From: a virus
Length of the DNA: 48,818 bases
Direction: 5' to 3' (one strand)
Virus genome (UHGV): UHGV-1992300
The notes under the pieces are model-generated. The model was given only the letters and a program-made list of their open reading frames with translations. It was not told the DNA's origin and made no database searches. Made by a program: the position numbers and the translations under genes. Below, piece by piece: positions 359 through 19,048 of the stretch. Position 1 is the first letter of the stretch, and each line of letters begins with the position of its first letter.

Positions 359-2830
359 TTAAGAATCAGCCTGACTCGGGATCAGTTTTTGCCAGATAAC
401 TGAAACGTATTTTGCTTGGTAACGGGCGTCATCAAGTGCATTATGGCGCTCACCTTCGAATGGAATAGCCGTTCTGGCATCGAAATCTATGGCTTTCCCC
501 AGCTCAACGATTGTGCGTACATCGCGATCGTTGTAGTAACGCCACGGGCAGGGGATCCCCTGCCGTTCGTATGAACGGCGCAAAATCGTGTTGTCGAAGT
601 TGGCTCCATTTCCCCAAACCTGAACAAAAAATTCACCGGAGTTTTCGTCGATAAATTCCCGCAATTGTAACAGTGCATCATCTAGCGGGATTTCATCGGT
701 CATAATGGCAGATTGTGCTTCGCGTGATTGCTTAAGCCACCATTTAATGGTGTCCCGATCAATGACTCCGCCAGCAGTTTCCAGATCGATAGTCTTACTA
801 AATTCCGGTCCTATATCTCCGGTTTGCGGATCGAAAAATATTGCACCTATTGAGATGATCGGTGCATCAGGATTTTTTCCCATGGTTTCAAGGTCGATCA
901 TTAGATGGTCACACGTCCTGCTGGTGGATGTGATTTCGTGATGACTGTTCACCTTAATTGAGTGATCTGCCGTCTCGCCAGTTTCATTATCGCTATTGTG
1001 ATGCTGATTGCCGCCAGTGTTCTCCTTGTGTGGATGTTCAGCGCCTTCCATTTCCTCCGGATCATCTTCCTGAACTTCAACCTGATACTCTTCATCGAAT
1101 GTTTTTTGGTATGTTGCGTCGCCCATCACCGCGCCACAATCAGGGCAGTTGCCGCCGCCGGTCTGACCGCAGGCGGTGCAGACTTTTTCCACTTCCTGTT
1201 GCGCCACTGGTTCAGGCTGTTTCGTTTCTGGCTCGTTTTGTAACGCATTTGGGCTGTTTTGTTCCGCTTTTTGGTAGTTCCGTTCCGATTCATGCTGGTT
1301 CTGGTTCACAGAATCGCGGGTCTGGATCCCCTTAACCCATTTCGGATCATTCGGGTCACTAATCCCTTCAACAAATTCACCATGTGATGCAGCAAGCAAC
1401 TTATCGGCGTCAGGCTGGCTGATATTGGCTGCCTGCATAATTTTGTTTACTTCGTCAGCGGTAACTTTTATCGGCTCTGGTTGTTCTGAATCTTCAGCGG
1501 TATCTACATTTTGCGGTAAGCCCGTGTATGTGCCATTTTTTCGGGCAAAATATTCTTCTTTTGTGATTTCAGTGGCGCCAGCAGCCAGTGCCTTATCCAG
1601 ACCAGAAAGTTTGTTTGCGCGACCGTATTTTTCTCCGTCCTTATCTGTGAAGAGGAAATAGAACGGCCCCTCACGCTCTACAGATGGTTCAGCTTCCGGC
1701 GCGGTTTCATTTTTTGGGATATCAGATACCTCAGTTTCCACTGCATCAGTTTGTGTTTCTGATGACTGGAGAACATCAACAGTGCCCAGGTCTGTTTCTT
1801 CATTCTCAAACACGCCCTTTGTCGTCAGGTATTCGCAGATATATTTGTTCAGTGCTACGGGATCTTTGTGAATGTCGATCGGACGCTCACGGACAAGGCC
1901 AAAAATAGTTTGGCGGTCGTAGCGAAGGGCATCAGGCTGTTTGCGCATTGATGCCGAGATACGCTTCCAGTCTTCGCGGTCGTTGTCGATAACTTCTTTT
2001 TTTGCCCAGCGATGGATGCTGCCGTCAATGTTTCCGGCATCCACATCACCAGGCCAGAGAGCGTAGGCCAGTTCGTCATCCAGTGTTTTCCATGTCTGCT
2101 TGTATTCGCGATGAATGGCAGCAATGACCGGGCTGATTTTTCCTGTTGAATTTTCACTGTGCTGTTGATTGGTTCTGGCGCGGGCGAGATCAACAACAGA
2201 CGTGTATTTTCCGGTTTCCTTGCGTTCACCTTCGCGACGTTTTTTCCAGATGCGCATCTCTGCCTGAATTTCGGGCCATTTGGCACCAGGCTTACATTTA
2301 TGCTTAACCCACCCGATGGCATGCAGCTTAAGCTCCGGATACATGGCGTTAACTTCTGGCATTTTCATCAACGCTTCAACGATATGTCCGTCGAATGTTG
2401 CCATGTCTTCCTGCAACAATTCCTGTGCGCTAATAACCATATCAACGGTGATGTTTTCACATGTGTCGAACTTAACCATGACAGCGTTCTGTACTTCAGG
2501 GGCCAGCTTGTCAAAAGTGACGTTCATCGGATCGGATTCAGTCTCAACCGGGACAAAGGAAGCAGACTCCTCATCCCAGCGGTTTTCCTGCATATATTCA
2601 GCATCCCAGGAATCGAGGGCAGGGCGGGGTATACCGGGTTTATCCTCGCAGACAAGAAATTTATAAGCGCAGTCCTGAGCAGCCGGATAATGTTCCAGGA
2701 ATTGCCAGTGAAATTTTGCGCGGGCGCGACGTTCATCACCGGCTTCAATGGCAGTGGCTACAGCGACGGCACCTTCTTCCTTTATTGCCTGTTCGTCCGG
2801 AATGGCGGCGCAAATAAAGACTTTACTCAT
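359..2830 (-). CDS. large prophage exonuclease (annotated in relatives as exodeoxyribonuclease VIII-like); C-terminal DnaQ/DEDDh-type 3'-5' exonuclease domain
   Basis: 823-aa ORF with GAGGT RBS. C-terminal ~190 aa carry exonuclease motifs ('MIDLETMG', 'WGNGANFD', 'HNALDDA'); central Cys4 'CTACGQ...CPDCG' zinc-ribbon-like motif. No adjacent recT/bet-like partner seen. Confidence 0.75.
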   Translation of the reverse strand: MSKVFICAAIPDEQAIKEEGAVAVATAIEAGDERRARAKFHWQFLEHYPAAQDCAYKFLVCEDKPGIPRPALDSWDAEYMQENRWDEESASFVPVETESDPMNVTFDKLAPEVQNAVMVKFDTCENITVDMVISAQELLQEDMATFDGHIVEALMKMPEVNAMYPELKLHAIGWVKHKCKPGAKWPEIQAEMRIWKKRREGERKETGKYTSVVDLARARTNQQHSENSTGKISPVIAAIHREYKQTWKTLDDELAYALWPGDVDAGNIDGSIHRWAKKEVIDNDREDWKRISASMRKQPDALRYDRQTIFGLVRERPIDIHKDPVALNKYICEYLTTKGVFENEETDLGTVDVLQSSETQTDAVETEVSDIPKNETAPEAEPSVEREGPFYFLFTDKDGEKYGRANKLSGLDKALAAGATEITKEEYFARKNGTYTGLPQNVDTAEDSEQPEPIKVTADEVNKIMQAANISQPDADKLLAASHGEFVEGISDPNDPKWVKGIQTRDSVNQNQHESERNYQKAEQNSPNALQNEPETKQPEPVAQQEVEKVCTACGQTGGGNCPDCGAVMGDATYQKTFDEEYQVEVQEDDPEEMEGAEHPHKENTGGNQHHNSDNETGETADHSIKVNSHHEITSTSRTCDHLMIDLETMGKNPDAPIISIGAIFFDPQTGDIGPEFSKTIDLETAGGVIDRDTIKWWLKQSREAQSAIMTDEIPLDDALLQLREFIDENSGEFFVQVWGNGANFDNTILRRSYERQGIPCPWRYYNDRDVRTIVELGKAIDFDARTAIPFEGERHNALDDARYQAKYVSVIWQKLIPSQADS

Positions 2831-2922
2831 TTTGTTTTACCTCATTACAGATTTAAGGGTGAACAAATCCCTGCCATTGCTGGCATATAAGAATGAAACC
2901 GGATATTTATTACGGAACTGTT

Positions 2923-3114
2923 TTAAAGACCTGCCGGGATTTCGTTATTATCCTGGTGAATAACTTTATCGACCGGGTAACAGTTACCGGGAATTTTCTG
3001 TTCGGTTGCTGCAGTCACACACTCCTGCATTGTCCTGTGAACACTGACTGCAATATCAACTGGCTCTCCGGAAACAAGAAAAACTGTCAGAACAAGTGCA
3101 AATGCTGTATTCAT
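2923..3114 (-). CDS. ydfD: YdfD-like small membrane (lysis) protein
   Basis: 63 aa from internal ATG 'MNTAFALVLTVFLVSGEPVD...': N-terminal hydrophobic helix; start overlaps the stop of the upstream DicB-like ORF; matches my recollection of Qin YdfD. Confidence 0.5.
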   Translation of the reverse strand: MNTAFALVLTVFLVSGEPVDIAVSVHRTMQECVTAATEQKIPGNCYPVDKVIHQDNNEIPAGL

Positions 3115-3299
3115 TGCCAGCATCCTTTTTGTATCGGACGTAAACGGGCCAGCATTGAAAGAATGCATATTTTATTTAATAGCTCCCGTTCGTGTTTTCT
3201 CTTGTTAATGGCATCTTCAGTAAATACAGGGTTACTGATATTGACACCAATTTCAAAACAACCTTCAGACGTATTAACGTTTGGTAATAACGTTTCCAT
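3111..3299 (-). CDS. dicB: DicB-like cell-division inhibitor
   Basis: 62 aa 'METLLPNVNTSEGCFEIGV...NKICILSMLARL' with GAGGA RBS; near-identical (from memory) to E. coli DicB; lies downstream of a DicF-like element. Confidence 0.65.
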   Translation of the reverse strand: METLLPNVNTSEGCFEIGVNISNPVFTEDAINKRKHERELLNKICILSMLARLRPIQKGCWQ

Positions 3300-3468
3300 T
3301 ATCGCGTCCTCAACAATGAATTTTGTGATGCGGTGCCTGGTGCCTCCAGGTGACGTTAACCAGTTAACAATTAACGCCGGATACAGAGAATCCACCCATA
3401 ACACTGTTTTTGGTTTTAACTGTTCCGCGTGCGCTCAGCCGCATTCACCACATCACAAAATTCACTTT

Positions 3469-3526
3469 AAAAAGGGCGGCAGAGCAGTCACGGAGTAAAA
3501 CTGATACCGCCAAACGTCACCAGAAA
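3469..3526 (-). ncRNA. dicF: DicF-like small RNA
   Basis: Minus-strand read is TTTCTGGTGACGTTTGGCGGTATCAGTTTTACTCCGTGACTGCTCTGCCGCCCTTTTT: GC hairpin plus U-tract terminator, ~170 nt upstream of the DicB-like ORF, matching the DicF sequence as I recall it. Confidence 0.6.
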
Positions 3527-3862
3527 ATTGATAACAGAGGGCGTTGCAGCGGGGTTGTCACTTAAGCGTATGGTCAACCTGACAACTCGGTNNNNNNNNN
3601 NNNNNNNNNNNATAACCCCGCCATACTTACCGCCGCGCCATTTCGCGGATTGCCACAACCGGAAGCGCACGGTCGACGAAAATTTAACGACAGGCTATCT
3701 ATGAACCAGCTACCTCGCCGTGCGCTTTCGCGTTATGGTCTGACTTTTCAGGGAAATATCCTTTCAGTAAACTGTCAGTGCCGGATGCTCACCCGTGTCC
3801 GGCGCGCGCACTCCACCTCACCCGTGGAGAACTCCTTAATCACCAACCCTCAGGAGGGTGAA

Positions 3863-4138
3863 ATGTCGACTGAAAATGATGAAATCATTAACTCCCTGAT
3901 ACGCCAGATTAATAATTTTGATAAAGCATTGCAACATGCTGCGGCGCGTAGTGATATAACTCTTTTAGCAATTTCATTTCTTGCATCTGTTATGGATAAA
4001 AATGAAGTCGTACGACAGAGTCTTGTTGATTATATCGACTCGCTTCAACCCGGCACTTTCAATCATGAGAGCTTCAATCATGAGAAAGAGCATGTTAAGT
4101 CTGTAATTAATTCTCTTATTTTGAATCAAAAGAATTAA
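3863..4138 (+). CDS. hypothetical protein (AT-rich, opposite orientation to the early-left operon)
   Basis: 91-aa ORF from ATG 3863 with strong SD (AGGAGGGTGAA-ATG); AT-rich coding sequence; overlaps the 3' end of a minus-strand ORF by 23 nt. No recognisable domain. Confidence 0.4.
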   Translation: MSTENDEIINSLIRQINNFDKALQHAAARSDITLLAISFLASVMDKNEVVRQSLVDYIDSLQPGTFNHESFNHEKEHVKSVINSLILNQKN

Positions 4139-4448
4139 TGCTTTTTGTTGCAAAGTAATTTTCAAGGGGTTCTATTCGAATCCCTTTCTTTTTCATTAAC
4201 AAGCCAAACCCCTTATCAATGATGTCCATTAGATCCAGGAAGTATTTTTCATGTAAATCCTGGTTATCAGAGAGCTGCTTCTCTTCGTACAGCCCGATAA
4301 AGGCTCGGCGTACGTTACCGGATATATTGTCGATGGTTTCTTTTTCTACGGTACTCAGGTCAAGAGTCGCCAGTTGAGAGCGAACCACATTCGATGCCAT
4401 TTCCTGGAATGGTACTGGTAAATCTTTAAATTCCATCGTCAACCTCAT
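4116..4448 (-). CDS. hypothetical early-left operon protein
   Basis: 110-aa ORF whose ATG overlaps the stop of the upstream ORF (ATGA coupling); no recognisable domain. Confidence 0.45.
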   Translation of the reverse strand: MRLTMEFKDLPVPFQEMASNVVRSQLATLDLSTVEKETIDNISGNVRRAFIGLYEEKQLSDNQDLHEKYFLDLMDIIDKGFGLLMKKKGIRIEPLENYFATKSINSFDSK

Positions 4449-4681
4449 CAGTCAGTGTTTCTGGTTAACCAGCGACGCGCGCCAGCTTCAGTTTTAAACG
4501 TTTTGCTTCTGGTATACGTCATCGCGGTAAACGTGCCGTCCTGGTTGGGGAACACGCCACATACCAGAGATTCGTTGTTGCCAAGATTGAGCATATCCAT
4601 GTTGACCTCATTTCCCCTTAACGCCGGGGTAGCGGAACAAAAACCTGCTGCATAGTTATTAAAGTTGAAACCTGCCGTCAT
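4448..4681 (-). CDS. hypothetical early-left operon protein (first gene after PL-like promoter)
   Basis: 77-aa ORF immediately downstream (leftward) of the operator/promoter region at 4783-4826; occupies the ydfA-like position. Confidence 0.45.
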   Translation of the reverse strand: MTAGFNFNNYAAGFCSATPALRGNEVNMDMLNLGNNESLVCGVFPNQDGTFTAMTYTRSKTFKTEAGARRWLTRNTD

Positions 4682-4782
4682 GTTCTTACGCCTCGGGCTG
4701 GCTACTTAACCCCTGACCACTGCCTGGTAACTCGAAGTATTGCCCTGCATTCTGTGGGGCGGGGTGGGTTGGTATGAAAAGA

Positions 4783-11561: not shown

Positions 11562-12082
11562 CCTGGCCTGAAGCATTAACAACGGTAGGAATTGCGATGG
11601 CGGTGGCGCTGGTGGTGTATTCGATTTGCCACTGGGGATAAAAACGGTTTGCGGGAAAAGGAGAGTTAAGTAGAATTGCAGCGGGTGCTTGAGGCTATCT
11701 GTCTCAGGCATGAACACCAAAAGGCAGATAGAGAAAAGCCCCAGTTAACATTACGCGTCCGGCAAGACGCTTAACATTAATCTGAGGCCATATCTATGCT
11801 CTACACACGTAGGTTAGCCTCTTACGTGCCGAAAGGCAAGGAGAAGCAGGNNNNNNNNNNNNNNNNNNNNNNNNNNNCTAATCGCCCTGATCGTCATCTG
11901 TTTAACCGTCATTGTGACGGCACTGGTAACGAGGAAAGACCTCTGCGAGGTACGAATCCGAACCGGCCAGACGGAGGTCGCTGTCTTCACAGCTTACGAA
12001 CCTGAGGAGTAAGAGACCCGGCGGGGGAGTAATCTCCCGCCACCTCTGATGTGCCAGGCATCCTCAACGCACCCGCACTTAA

Positions 12083-12101
12083 CCCGCTTCGGCGGGTTTT
12101 T
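12083..12101 (+). terminator. intrinsic terminator (upstream copy)
   Basis: CCCGC-TTCG-GCGGG hairpin followed by TTTTT. Confidence 0.7.
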
Positions 12102-12177
12102 GCATTAGTCTGGTTGACAAAAATAGAAAAATGCGAAAATATGTGGTTTACGAATTCTAAAAAAAGCGAAACTTGAA

Positions 12178-12828
12178 ATGAATGAAAATCAGTTAGCTCC
12201 TTGTTGGGAATTTCAACCTTATCTTGCTGAAAACTATGTTCGCCACTTGTTGGCGGAGATCGCTAACGTACTTGAGCAGCTGTACTATCATAAGCACGCA
12301 TTAGACAGCAACTGGTCTGAAGGTGTAAGGGCTTATGATTGGGTCAGAAATCATCTTATTCAAAATGAAGATGCAATTCCTGGCCTTGAGATGATTTCCA
12401 AGGGGTTGGACTATGTAGTTGCTTTAAATAAAGTTCCGCTACAATTTACCAAAGATTGCATTAATAACCCCAAAAAGAAACATCGTCTGCGTCGAAATAA
12501 AGTAGAGTATGAGCAGCTCTCATTGTTTGGTGATGTTGAGGCTGAGCAAGATATTACATGGCGAGTCATAGCTGAGCCTTTTTTATCCGAAGAGGGCGAT
12601 GGTGAATTAGAGTCCACACTGCCTCGTTGGGAGGTAGCTCTTGTTGGATTTAATACTTATGGTGCTCAGATTAGTATAGTTTCTCATCAATCTACAGCAT
12701 CGATGCCGCTTATGCCTCTTGATTATAACACACTCCCTGACGAAGCGGAGATTAATAAGGTGCCTCTTCGTCGGCGTACGAAGGATAAAGATTTGGATGT
12801 GAGCAGTGATGGAACATCAGGTGAATAA
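12178..12828 (+). CDS. hypothetical protein, first gene of terminator-bracketed cassette
   Basis: 216-aa ORF; candidate sigma70 -35 TTGACA at 12114-12119 upstream; no domain recognised; mixed acidic and basic segments. Confidence 0.6.
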   Translation: MNENQLAPCWEFQPYLAENYVRHLLAEIANVLEQLYYHKHALDSNWSEGVRAYDWVRNHLIQNEDAIPGLEMISKGLDYVVALNKVPLQFTKDCINNPKKKHRLRRNKVEYEQLSLFGDVEAEQDITWRVIAEPFLSEEGDGELESTLPRWEVALVGFNTYGAQISIVSHQSTASMPLMPLDYNTLPDEAEINKVPLRRRTKDKDLDVSSDGTSGE

Positions 12829-13912
12829 CTTCACTGAGTATCGGGGTGATAAGCTCAAACTAGCGAGAATGGCTGTTGGGCTTTCTTGTGAAGAGTTAGC
12901 CGAAAAAATTGGCAAGACAAAGCAATTCGTTAGCAAACTGGAGAAGGGGTGCAGGCCATCGGAGCAATGTCTTGAGTTAATATCTTCAGCGCTTATGATT
13001 AAGTCCAGTTTTCTTTTTACTGAACGAAAATACGCTCTGGAAAGTGATGTCTGCCATTTTCGGAGTAAGAAGTCCAGGACTCAAACGCTGACTAATAGTG
13101 TATTGGCCAGGGCTGAGATTCTTAATATTATAATTTCTGCTGTTGAAGGTGAAATCGAATTTCCTGACGTTAACATACCGGAGCACCCAGGGGCTGAATT
13201 ACTTACTCCGAATGATATTGAGCGAGTGGCAGAAGATTGTCGCCGTGCCTGGAATTTAGGTCTTGGCCCTATATCATCAATGGTTAAATTGGCGGAGAGT
13301 TTAGGGGTAATCGTTGCGCATGTTACGGGAGTCGATGATCGTGTTGATGCTTTTACTGTTCACAATAACAGGCCTGTTATCATCAGGAACAATGTTAAAA
13401 AAAGCATATGTAGATTTCGCTCTGATTTAGGTCATGAATTAGGGCATTTAGTAATGCATGAGGGCATAACGACAGGTGATAAACTTACGGAATCACAAGC
13501 CGATCACTTTTCGAGCGCCTTATTAGTTCCCAGGTTATCTTTCATTAAAGAATTTCCACGAATACGAGGTAAGCAATTCGACTGGAATGCTCTGGTTGAA
13601 TTTAAACTTAGATGGAAAATCAGCCTTAAAATGTGTATTTATCGAGCCAGCGCATTAGGCTTATTGACCCAGGAACAGGCAAGAACTGGCTATATGCATC
13701 TTAATTCCAGAGGGTATACGAGAGTTGAACCTGGTGATGAACTTTTGCGCCCTGAAGAACCCGGCATGCTGGCCGAGGCGATTGAAATGCTGGATGATGC
13801 AACCTGGCTAAGAATTCTTATGAAAACTGGCTTGAGCCAAGATTTAATTCGTGAGTTGTTCTCCATCAACAGACCTATTACAAATCCAAGAAATATTTTC
13901 CAGATTGTTTGA
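12809..13912 (+). CDS. XRE-family HTH fused to ImmA/IrrE-type (M78) zinc metallopeptidase
   Basis: N-terminal HTH 'LSCEELAEKIGKTKQFVSKLEKG'; HEXXH motif 'HELGHLVMHE' in the central domain; start overlaps the 3' end of the upstream gene by ~20 nt. Confidence 0.8.
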   Translation: MEHQVNNFTEYRGDKLKLARMAVGLSCEELAEKIGKTKQFVSKLEKGCRPSEQCLELISSALMIKSSFLFTERKYALESDVCHFRSKKSRTQTLTNSVLARAEILNIIISAVEGEIEFPDVNIPEHPGAELLTPNDIERVAEDCRRAWNLGLGPISSMVKLAESLGVIVAHVTGVDDRVDAFTVHNNRPVIIRNNVKKSICRFRSDLGHELGHLVMHEGITTGDKLTESQADHFSSALLVPRLSFIKEFPRIRGKQFDWNALVEFKLRWKISLKMCIYRASALGLLTQEQARTGYMHLNSRGYTRVEPGDELLRPEEPGMLAEAIEMLDDATWLRILMKTGLSQDLIRELFSINRPITNPRNIFQIV

Positions 13913-13916
13913 GTAT

Positions 13917-13937
13917 ACCCGCTTCGGCGGGTTTTTT
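13917..13937 (+). terminator. intrinsic terminator (downstream copy, same sequence as 12083-12101)
   Basis: ACCCGCTTCGGCGGG followed by TTTTTT; 16-mer core identical to the upstream copy. Confidence 0.7.
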
Positions 13938-18507: not shown

Positions 18508-18583
18508 GGCCCTTTAGCTCAGTGGTGAGAGCGAGCGACTCATAATCGCCAGGTCGCTGGTTCAAATCCAGCAAGGGCCACCA
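18508..18583 (+). tRNA. tRNA, anticodon CAT (Ile2/Met type; ileZ-like)
   Basis: Cloverleaf read by eye: acceptor GGCCCTT/AAGGGCC, D-arm TAGCTCAGTGGTGAGAGC, anticodon loop CTCATAA, T-loop GGTTCAAATCC, 3' CCA. Confidence 0.85.
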
Positions 18584-18590
18584 TCACATA

Positions 18591-18667
18591 CCGCCATTAG
18601 CTCATCAGGAAAGAGCGCCAGCCTTCGAAGCTGGTTGCGCGGGGTTCAAGTCCCCGATGGCGGTCCA
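18591..18667 (+). tRNA. tRNA-Arg, anticodon TCG
   Basis: Acceptor CCGCCAT/ATGGCGG, anticodon stem-loop CCAGC-CTTCGAA-GCTGG, T-arm CGGGGTTCAAGTCCCCG, 3' CCA. Confidence 0.8.
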
Positions 18668-18680
18668 TTATCTGCATCAT

Positions 18681-18757
18681 GCGTTGTTAGCTCAGCCGGA
18701 CAGAGCAATTGCCTTCTAAGCAATCGGTCACTGGTTCGAATCCAGTACAACGCGCCA
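18681..18757 (+). tRNA. tRNA-Arg, anticodon TCT
   Basis: Acceptor GCGTTGT/ACAACGC, anticodon stem-loop ATTGC-CTTCTAA-GCAAT, T-arm ACTGGTTCGAATCCAGT, 3' CCA. Confidence 0.85.
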
Positions 18758-19048
18758 CACTTATTTTCCCTGGCTCGCTTTTGTGGGCCTTTTTTTTAAA
18801 TGTCTCACAATTTAGGCGGTTGACTGTTGTCTGGTTTGCGGGGAGTTTGTTAAAAGAAACTGGCATGGTGAATCCCCCTGTGCGGAGGGGCAATCAGCGA
18901 GTAGGTATATGGGATAATCGCGGATTCAGGTGCTGGTACTGAATTCACCGGGAGGCACCCGGCACCATGCAATGGCACATAGCGCCACTCTCCAGCCCCT
19001 CTCCGGAGGGGCTGTTTATATTGATTTTGTCAGATGTGAGTAAACTCC

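Follow-up and report, generated by a model that had tools for sequence, protein, structure and literature searches.

An Xre-COG2856 type of toxin-antitoxin system was predicted by Makarova in 2009 (as cited in PMC9519451), and a validated pair from Vibrio mimicus, vmi480/vmi470, consists of a toxin of 198 amino acids (aa) and a 362-aa antitoxin that contains a helix-turn-helix (HTH) domain and a Zn-peptidase (PMC4671572). RosmerTA (Millman et al. 2022, bioRxiv 10.1101/2022.05.11.491447) is composed of a Zn-peptidase antitoxin, RmrA, and a toxin whose function is not known, RmrT; it guards Escherichia coli against phages, and the construct lacking rmrA could not be transformed. The toxins of other Rosmer pairs are lethal without their antitoxin (bioRxiv 10.1101/2022.05.11.491447; PMC4671572), rmrA is essential in its carriers (PMC13566846), and clpX/clpP are essential only where a Rosmer toxin is present, as found in E. 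coli E101, Streptococcus pneumoniae, and Pectobacteriaceae (bioRxiv 10.1101/2020.05.25.114553; PMC12795458; PMC13566846); published work on other Rosmer systems shows dependence on ClpX/ClpP rather than a DNA damage trigger. Here, we describe a two-gene cassette in a 48.8-kb stretch (48,818 nucleotides [nt]) of the virus genome UHGV-1992300, which we call the window and to which all coordinates refer unless another locus is named. The cassette, whose genes 1 and 2 we designate rmrT and rmrA, is very probably a RosmerTA-type toxin-antitoxin module carried as a moron.

Identity of the two genes and comparison with described systems

The product of rmrT (positions 12178 to 12828, plus strand, ATG start, 216 aa) matches the PADLOC RmrT profile PDLC03929 with an E value of 4.6e-25 over profile positions 5 to 195 of 198, and the product of rmrA (positions 12809 to 13912, plus strand, 367 aa) matches the RmrA profile PDLC03943 with an E value of 6.2e-105 over profile positions 2 to 342 of 370. 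The cassette agrees with RosmerTA in each defining feature open to computational testing. The initial annotation of this DNA had found that the cassette fits no system it could name and had proposed profile and structure searches; a PADLOC profile search gave a name to both proteins, and descriptions of toxin-antitoxin systems in which a toxin precedes an Xre-COG2856 fusion go back to 2009 to 2015. RmrA also matched, more weakly, the PADLOC profiles of CapP (E value of 1.6e-14, peptidase core only) and CapH (E value of 1.5e-4). In PHROGs, the two proteins correspond to phrog_5786 (gene 1, unknown function) and phrog_2439 (gene 2).

The predicted domain structure agreed with the initial annotation, in which gene 1 had no recognizable domain and gene 2 was a fusion of an XRE-type HTH to an M78 peptidase with an HEXXH motif. 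Searches of Pfam, NCBIfam, and PDB sequences with gene 1, either as a single sequence or as a profile of 58 sequences, gave no match. Gene 2 matched the Pfam families HTH_3 (E value of 5e-7) and Peptidase_M78 (E value of 6e-11) and contains the motif HELGHLVMHE. The HTH is encoded at approximately nt 12848 to 13024 and the M78 (ImmA/IrrE) Zn-peptidase at approximately nt 13334 to 13651, both on the plus strand, with HELGH at 13433 to 13447 and a C-terminal helical region after the peptidase. Solved relatives recognizable by sequence were limited to the HTH of RmrA (SinR and the 434 repressor). Gene 2 could start at a GTG (position 12806) or an ATG (position 12809), with the stop codon ending at 13912; in E. 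coli 042, where the DNA is identical, RefSeq places the start at the ATG, which gives the 367-aa protein and an overlap of 20 nt with rmrT. The two genes are thus adjacent and overlapping on the same strand, and homologous pairs overlap by 8 to 26 nt.

Like the cassette, the RosmerTA system of Millman et al. has two co-oriented genes, with a toxin gene without known domains in first position and an antitoxin of about 370 aa containing an XRE HTH and an M78 peptidase. RmrTA of the Gordonia phage Kita (Ernits et al. 2023, PMC10440598) is phage-borne, has an ImmA-type antitoxin, and defends E. coli against some BASEL phages; its toxin is membrane anchored and depolarizes the membrane, whereas the RmrT of the window is predicted to be soluble, with no hydrophobic segment. 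In vmi480/vmi470, the order is again a domainless toxin (about 198 aa) followed by an HTH-Zn-peptidase protein (about 362 aa), and the toxin is lethal in E. coli (PMC4671572). The pair E101_02645/02644 from an E. coli prophage (Rousset et al.) is likewise prophage-borne and makes clpP essential. Both of these pairs resemble the cassette in protein sizes and gene order, and the window family itself has Vibrio members. In searches for a relationship to Vmi480 or E101_02645, tblastn with a Vibrio member of the family against plasmids gave only distant matches and a genome scan gave only V. sonorensis; an alignment-based protein search listed no V. mimicus entry.

RipAB of S. pneumoniae (Spr1630/Spr1629) also belongs to the Rosmer class; its antitoxin combines an HTH and an ImmA-like peptidase, and RipA targets the sliding clamp DnaN (PMC12795458). 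RmrA of the window scored 155.9 bits (E value of 1.5e-45) against the NCBIfam spr1629 antitoxin model NF052239, below the curated cutoff of 335, and is therefore not a Spr1629 (RipB) equivalog. ImmR/ImmA of ICEBs1, CapH/CapP of the cyclic oligonucleotide-based antiphage signaling system (CBASS), and DdrO/IrrE share with the cassette an XRE HTH and an M78 peptidase in a stress-responsive arrangement, but there the two are separate proteins that control excision or another operon, whereas here they form one fused polypeptide tied to a toxin gene. Because of this fusion and the lack of a regulated neighbor, we do not assign the cassette to the ImmR/ImmA or CapH/CapP type. PD-lambda-2 (Vassallo et al. 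2022, PMC9519451) is found on mobile elements of E. coli, confers a defense phenotype, and has an Xre-peptidase fusion 3' of a toxin-like gene; however, it comprises three genes (a HigB-like gene, the fusion, and a P4-antitoxin-like gene) and its toxicity is reversed. The cassette has two genes and no third, and gene 1 has no match to HigB or any other Pfam family, so it is not PD-lambda-2.

The cassette is thus real and well delimited and belongs to a type already described (RosmerTA, 2022). Its value as a discovery is small, as PADLOC already recognizes both genes and well-known E. coli strains carry it, although the RefSeq labels in strains 042 and ABU 83972 are "hypothetical protein" and "helix-turn-helix domain-containing protein." The new details are a conserved pair of GGTTKACRAA sites and natural toxin knockouts with an intact antitoxin, and the remaining interest lies in the RmrT family, the operator pair, and the hokD neighborhood as an insertion hotspot.

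Linkage, distribution, and control of the pair

The relatives of gene 1 recovered by a word-indexed search were all close and came from Enterobacterales. When 1.84 billion representatives were searched with a profile, 69 proteins matched at E values of ≤1e-3 (family representatives counted at 50% identity), nearly all of 195 to 225 aa, and all 58 aligned family members matched the RmrT profile PDLC03929 (best E value of 3e-72). According to the cluster names, in which the protein is always called "hypothetical protein," the hosts are Escherichia, Klebsiella, Salmonella, Enterobacter, Serratia, Xenorhabdus, Vibrio, Aeromonas, and Pseudomonas. A tblastn search with gene 1 against 50,697 deposited phage genomes gave no match.

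The neighborhoods of eight homologues (17 to 65% identity to the window protein) were looked up, and in all eight the gene 1 homologue is directly followed by a gene for a protein of 342 to 383 aa with an HTH and Peptidase_M78, usually overlapping it. The same linkage is seen in a second allele from lambdoid prophages of E. coli O157:H7 (strain G5295, NZ_CP038346.1, locus L018, positions 2973 to 4731), whose toxin and antitoxin are 41% and 59% identical to those of the window, respectively. The pair occurs in Serratia prophages between Q and the holin gene, in a Xenorhabdus nin region, in P22-like elements adjoining a cI-like repressor gene, and in a plain chromosomal context beside thiolase genes. 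Lambdoid prophages carry it at three different slots, and no neighbor besides gene 1 is constant among the loci looked up.

Among complete E. coli records, 224 contain the window allele with ≥99% identity. Of 5,426 complete E. coli genomes, about 237 hold most of the cassette, including 042, ABU 83972, VR50, and ML35. The cassette is therefore accessory and not core. The initial annotation had suggested examining whether gene 1 homologues co-occur with HTH-M78 genes, which they do in every relative examined, and had foreseen two objections, namely, that gene 1 homologues might never be linked to such genes and that the cassette might be a conserved core part of nin regions. Neither was borne out, as the linkage was seen throughout these relatives and the cassette occurs in about 4% of complete E. 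coli genomes. We also observed that RmrA is more conserved than RmrT: one RmrA cluster at 90% identity spans E. coli, Salmonella, Citrobacter, and Lelliottia, while separate 90% clusters hold the partner toxins, which are 77 to 84% identical to the window RmrT (83% for Lelliottia).

The control region of the cassette (positions 12102 to 12177, plus strand) contains two direct repeats 33 nt apart upstream of rmrT, GGTTGACAAA at 12112 to 12121 and GGTTTACGAA at 12145 to 12154. A −35-like TTGACA (12114 to 12119) lies inside GGTTGACAAA, and at a spacing of 17 nt it is followed by AAATAT (12137 to 12142), a weak candidate −10. The initial annotation had listed this hexamer as a candidate sigma-70 −35 element; the hexamer is indeed there, but the −10 is weak and a consensus promoter scan did not call a promoter at TTGACA/AAATAT. 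The repeats correspond to a GGTTKACRAA pair, sometimes a triplet, that recurs, spaced by 31 to 33 nt and upstream of the toxin gene, in loci from Serratia, Xenorhabdus, Vibrio, O157:H7, and metagenomes whose proteins are only 20 to 40% identical. When a pair was scored as two sites with ≤2 mismatches each, 30 to 34 nt apart on the plus strand and within 130 nt of the start codon, it was found in 8 of 11 independent loci, compared to 2 of 3,564 control windows taken from these loci. Besides the window, the loci with the pair are L003, L004, L008, L011, L015, L017, and L018. The −35-like element is kept upstream of distant homologues, and the −10 at the 17-nt spacing varies (GATAAT in Vibrio, GATATT in L011, and AAATAT in the window). 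This arrangement suggests a weak sigma-70 promoter whose −35 and start regions would both be occupied by the HTH of RmrA, which is the autoregulation usual for type II antitoxins, and the conserved operator-like repeats offer a concrete handle on how RmrA may regulate the operon.

Operator-like repeats conserved upstream of the pair might also be expected if the HTH-M78 protein were a repressor/antirepressor of the ImmR/ImmA or CapH/CapP kind that controls induction or a neighboring operon upon DNA damage, with gene 1 as a mere passenger. The initial annotation had drawn this analogy, and the peptidase and HTH do resemble CapP and CapH, respectively, at the E values given above. The RmrA profile fits far better, however, and over the full length (E value of 6e-105), the HTH and the peptidase are fused rather than encoded by separate genes, and the repeats front the pair itself and not another operon. 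The prophage has its own immunity region (HTH/YdaS/YdaT) about 7 kb upstream of the cassette, otherwise similar phages lack the cassette, and the pair moves as a unit into nonphage contexts with no constant third gene. The context data already largely refute such a switch, and we consider it very improbable.

Polarity and working model

Which of the two proteins is harmful cannot be assumed from the architecture, since in the related three-gene system PD-lambda-2 the Xre-peptidase is itself toxic (PMC9519451). Two natural knockouts bear on the question. In E. coli FDAARGOS_1249 (locus L020, positions 458 to 2017), the 5' part of rmrT is interrupted by IS5, and the rmrA beside it is intact and identical to that of the window. 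In Salmonella LR134142.1 (locus L021, positions 2501 to 4234), rmrT is frameshifted and the adjacent rmrA, encoding 367 aa, is intact; this copy belongs to a P4-like island that also contains AlpA, a DUF927 primase, and an integrase. The converse, a broken rmrA next to an intact rmrT, was not seen. Although anecdotal, these knockouts favor gene 1 as the toxin gene and gene 2 as the antitoxin gene.

If the polarity were that of PD-lambda-2, where the upstream gene relieves the toxicity of the overexpressed Xre-peptidase (PMC9519451), harm would come from the HTH-peptidase and gene 1 would be its antidote. Genomes in which IS5 or a frameshift has disrupted rmrT but left rmrA intact would then not be viable. 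Moreover, in the system of Millman et al. it was the construct without rmrA that could not be transformed, the peptidase gene is indispensable in vmi480/vmi470 and in Pectobacteriaceae, and gene 1 is not HigB-like. We therefore regard a reversed polarity as highly unlikely and retain RmrT as the putative toxin and RmrA as the putative antitoxin and regulator.

The peptidase of RmrA is under selection as an enzyme, because its HExxH...E positions are invariant. Across nine RmrA partners with 30 to 72% identity, the invariant residues are H209, E210, and H213 (HExxH), H217, E228, and F84-R85; E228 lies within a T-E-x-Q-A-x-x-F motif, and F84-R85 belongs to a motif (consensus CHFRS) between the HTH and the peptidase. 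The third zinc ligand of M78 peptidases is usually this glutamate, and we take E228 to be the probable third ligand in RmrA.

In the working model, a weak promoter belonging to the operon would drive its transcription in the lysogen, and the HTH of RmrA would bind the two GGTTKACRAA sites and limit transcription. The peptidase domain of RmrA would keep RmrT harmless, probably together with the host ClpXP and perhaps by acting on the conserved tail of RmrT. Phage infection or loss of the element would upset control by RmrA, and free RmrT would then arrest or kill the cell, so that the infection is aborted and the prophage is also stabilized. The initial annotation had proposed a damage- or infection-triggered effector module carried as a moron. 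An effector restrained by an ImmA/IrrE-type switch and a self-contained moron are consistent with what we found, but nothing found supports the DNA damage trigger.

Several points weigh against RosmerTA function as modeled here. No experimental study of this RmrT family (PDLC03929) was found in the literature. The verified RmrT of Millman et al. (E. coli OLC-716, 239 aa) has no detectable sequence similarity to the window toxin (hhalign probability of 0.1%), and the defense activity proposed here is thus extrapolated from the shared antitoxin class. The −10 element of the promoter is weak, as described above, and PD-lambda-2 shows the opposite toxicity. The trigger, the chemistry of neutralization (binding, cleavage, or repression), and the target of the toxin are all inferred.

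An AlphaFold2 model of RmrT built from the 58-sequence alignment was confident and reached a predicted local distance difference test (pLDDT) score of 85.9 and a predicted template modeling (pTM) score of 0.76; it replaced an earlier model from 13 close sequences (pLDDT of 62). The model predicts a pair of long helices, a sheet of three strands, one more helix, three further strands, and a less ordered C-terminal tail, that is, a soluble alpha/beta protein, and no hydrophobic segment was detected. The predicted fold bears only a weak resemblance to restriction endonucleases when their alpha-beta-beta-beta-alpha-beta core is compared. The catalytic D...(D/E)xK is not conserved on strands 2 and 3, where the family consensus is F-V-F-x-I and V-P-x-R-F; the conserved polar positions of RmrT are D43, R51, R/Q89, D93/94, E110, R129, and E133. 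Because the PD-(D/E)xK motif is absent, the idea of RmrT as a nuclease was rejected. Since RmrT is predicted to be soluble, the membrane pore mechanism of another RmrT, with depolarization of the membrane, is also unlikely here. The most that can be said from the model is that RmrT is probably soluble, with a target inside the cell. The tail at residues ~181 to 200 (window positions ~12718 to 12777) has an acidic stretch kept in the family, followed by P-x-hydrophobic-x-hydrophobic-basic, here EAEINKVPLRRR; this motif is a candidate recognition site for RmrA or ClpX.

A more specific proposal, which we advance tentatively and consider unlikely in its entirety, is that RmrT is a new kind of soluble toxin with a degenerate restriction endonuclease-like fold, deprived of the nuclease motif, and binds a DNA-associated target of the host or phage rather than cutting or damaging the membrane. 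It would be restrained by a relay of the RmrA peptidase, acting on the conserved C-terminal tail, and ClpXP, which would complete the process; RmrA would set the expression of the operon via GGTTKACRAA, and interference of a phage with the relay would be the trigger. As a common enterobacterial family without a Pfam family or a solved structure, these RmrT proteins are a reasonable target for work on the Rosmer mechanism.

Insertion beside hokD and prophage context

The window represents an E. coli lambdoid prophage that is Rac/Qin-like and carries DicF, dicB, a YdaS/YdaT immunity region, hok/sok, RusA, a Q antiterminator, three tRNAs, and lysis genes. The hok/sok type I toxin-antitoxin locus (positions 11683 to 12012, plus strand) is the neighbor of the cassette on the left: the sok RNA matches Rfam RF01794 at 11683 to 11850 (109.9 bits), the hokD open reading frame (ORF) ends at 12012, and hokD is annotated by RefSeq in the identical locus of E. 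coli 042. Two exact copies of a 20-nt sequence composed of a hairpin and a T-run, ACCCGCTTCGGCGGGTTTTT, and no others, are present in the window, at 12082 to 12101 and 13917 to 13936 on the plus strand; both copies were scored as terminator-like, and the sequence, of which chance would give none, had no match in 100 shuffles. The left copy is the intrinsic terminator of hokD and marks the left edge of the insertion, and the right copy now closes the transcript of the cassette; the next ORF 3' of rmrA lies past the terminator and is part of the phage backbone.

In a megablast comparison with deposited phages, only positions 12000 to 12102 (the end of hokD and the terminator) matched, and similarity ended at 12102. 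Phage PhiR42_1 provides the empty site, with a single copy of the terminator directly followed by GTTTTTATTTTCAACG. In the window, GTTTTTATTTTCAACG starts at 13937, after the second copy of the terminator, and from there on the sequence is as in cassette-free phages. Cassettes of the same family elsewhere do not finish with the ACCCGCTTCGGCGGGTTTTT hairpin. Since cassettes elsewhere have other ends and the empty site contains a single copy, the two identical terminators represent a duplication, at insertion, of the hokD terminator, and a terminator belonging to the cassette itself was ruled out on the same grounds. Thus, about 1.8 kb of foreign DNA was inserted with a duplication of 20 bp, and the insertion comprises 12102 to 13936, counting one copy of the repeat. 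The initial annotation had noticed the repeated terminator around the two-gene unit; the repeat proved to be exact, with the annotated coordinates one base off. The unit is insulated on both sides as had been described, but the bracketing pair is the duplicated terminator of neighboring hokD and not a design of the cassette. The G+C content is 41 to 44% in the cassette, compared to 47 to 55% in the flanks. The cassette is a moron that lies in the nin region directly downstream of the hokD terminator.

The second allele, in O157:H7, lies just upstream of hokD, whereas the window allele lies just downstream. Because a second allele landed beside hokD, the hokD neighborhood in the nin regions of lambdoid phages looks like a hotspot at which such modules insert. 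With hokD/sok adjoining the cassette and relBE located in the same region of related phages, one may ask whether the pair is purely an addiction module that stabilizes the prophage by postsegregational killing and has no role in phage defense. That antitoxins of the rmrA type are essential in their hosts would fit this explanation, as would the facts that this toxin family is unrelated to the verified RmrT and that no defense test of it was found in the literature. Two unrelated RmrT/RmrA pairs nevertheless protect against phages, the family is also present at ordinary chromosomal sites where there is no element to stabilize (L013), and roles in maintenance and defense are not mutually exclusive. 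We therefore regard addiction alone as a possible but rather unlikely account of the pair. As outcomes of a RosmerTA-type module, defense and prophage addiction are both plausible and are inseparable by sequence.

Further features of the prophage were observed outside the cassette. A run of 27 N at 11851 to 11877 hides the start of the hokD ORF, and the sok match stops exactly at this mask. The DicF small RNA (sRNA) is located at 3474 to 3525 (minus strand). A cluster of tRNA-Met (or Ile2), tRNA-Arg, and tRNA-Arg genes is located at 18508 to 18757 (plus strand), downstream of the Q antiterminator region. Another sRNA, STnc100, lies at 18834 to 19023 (plus strand). DicF, the tRNA cluster, and STnc100 are typical cargo of Qin/Rac-like and Stx-like lambdoid prophages.

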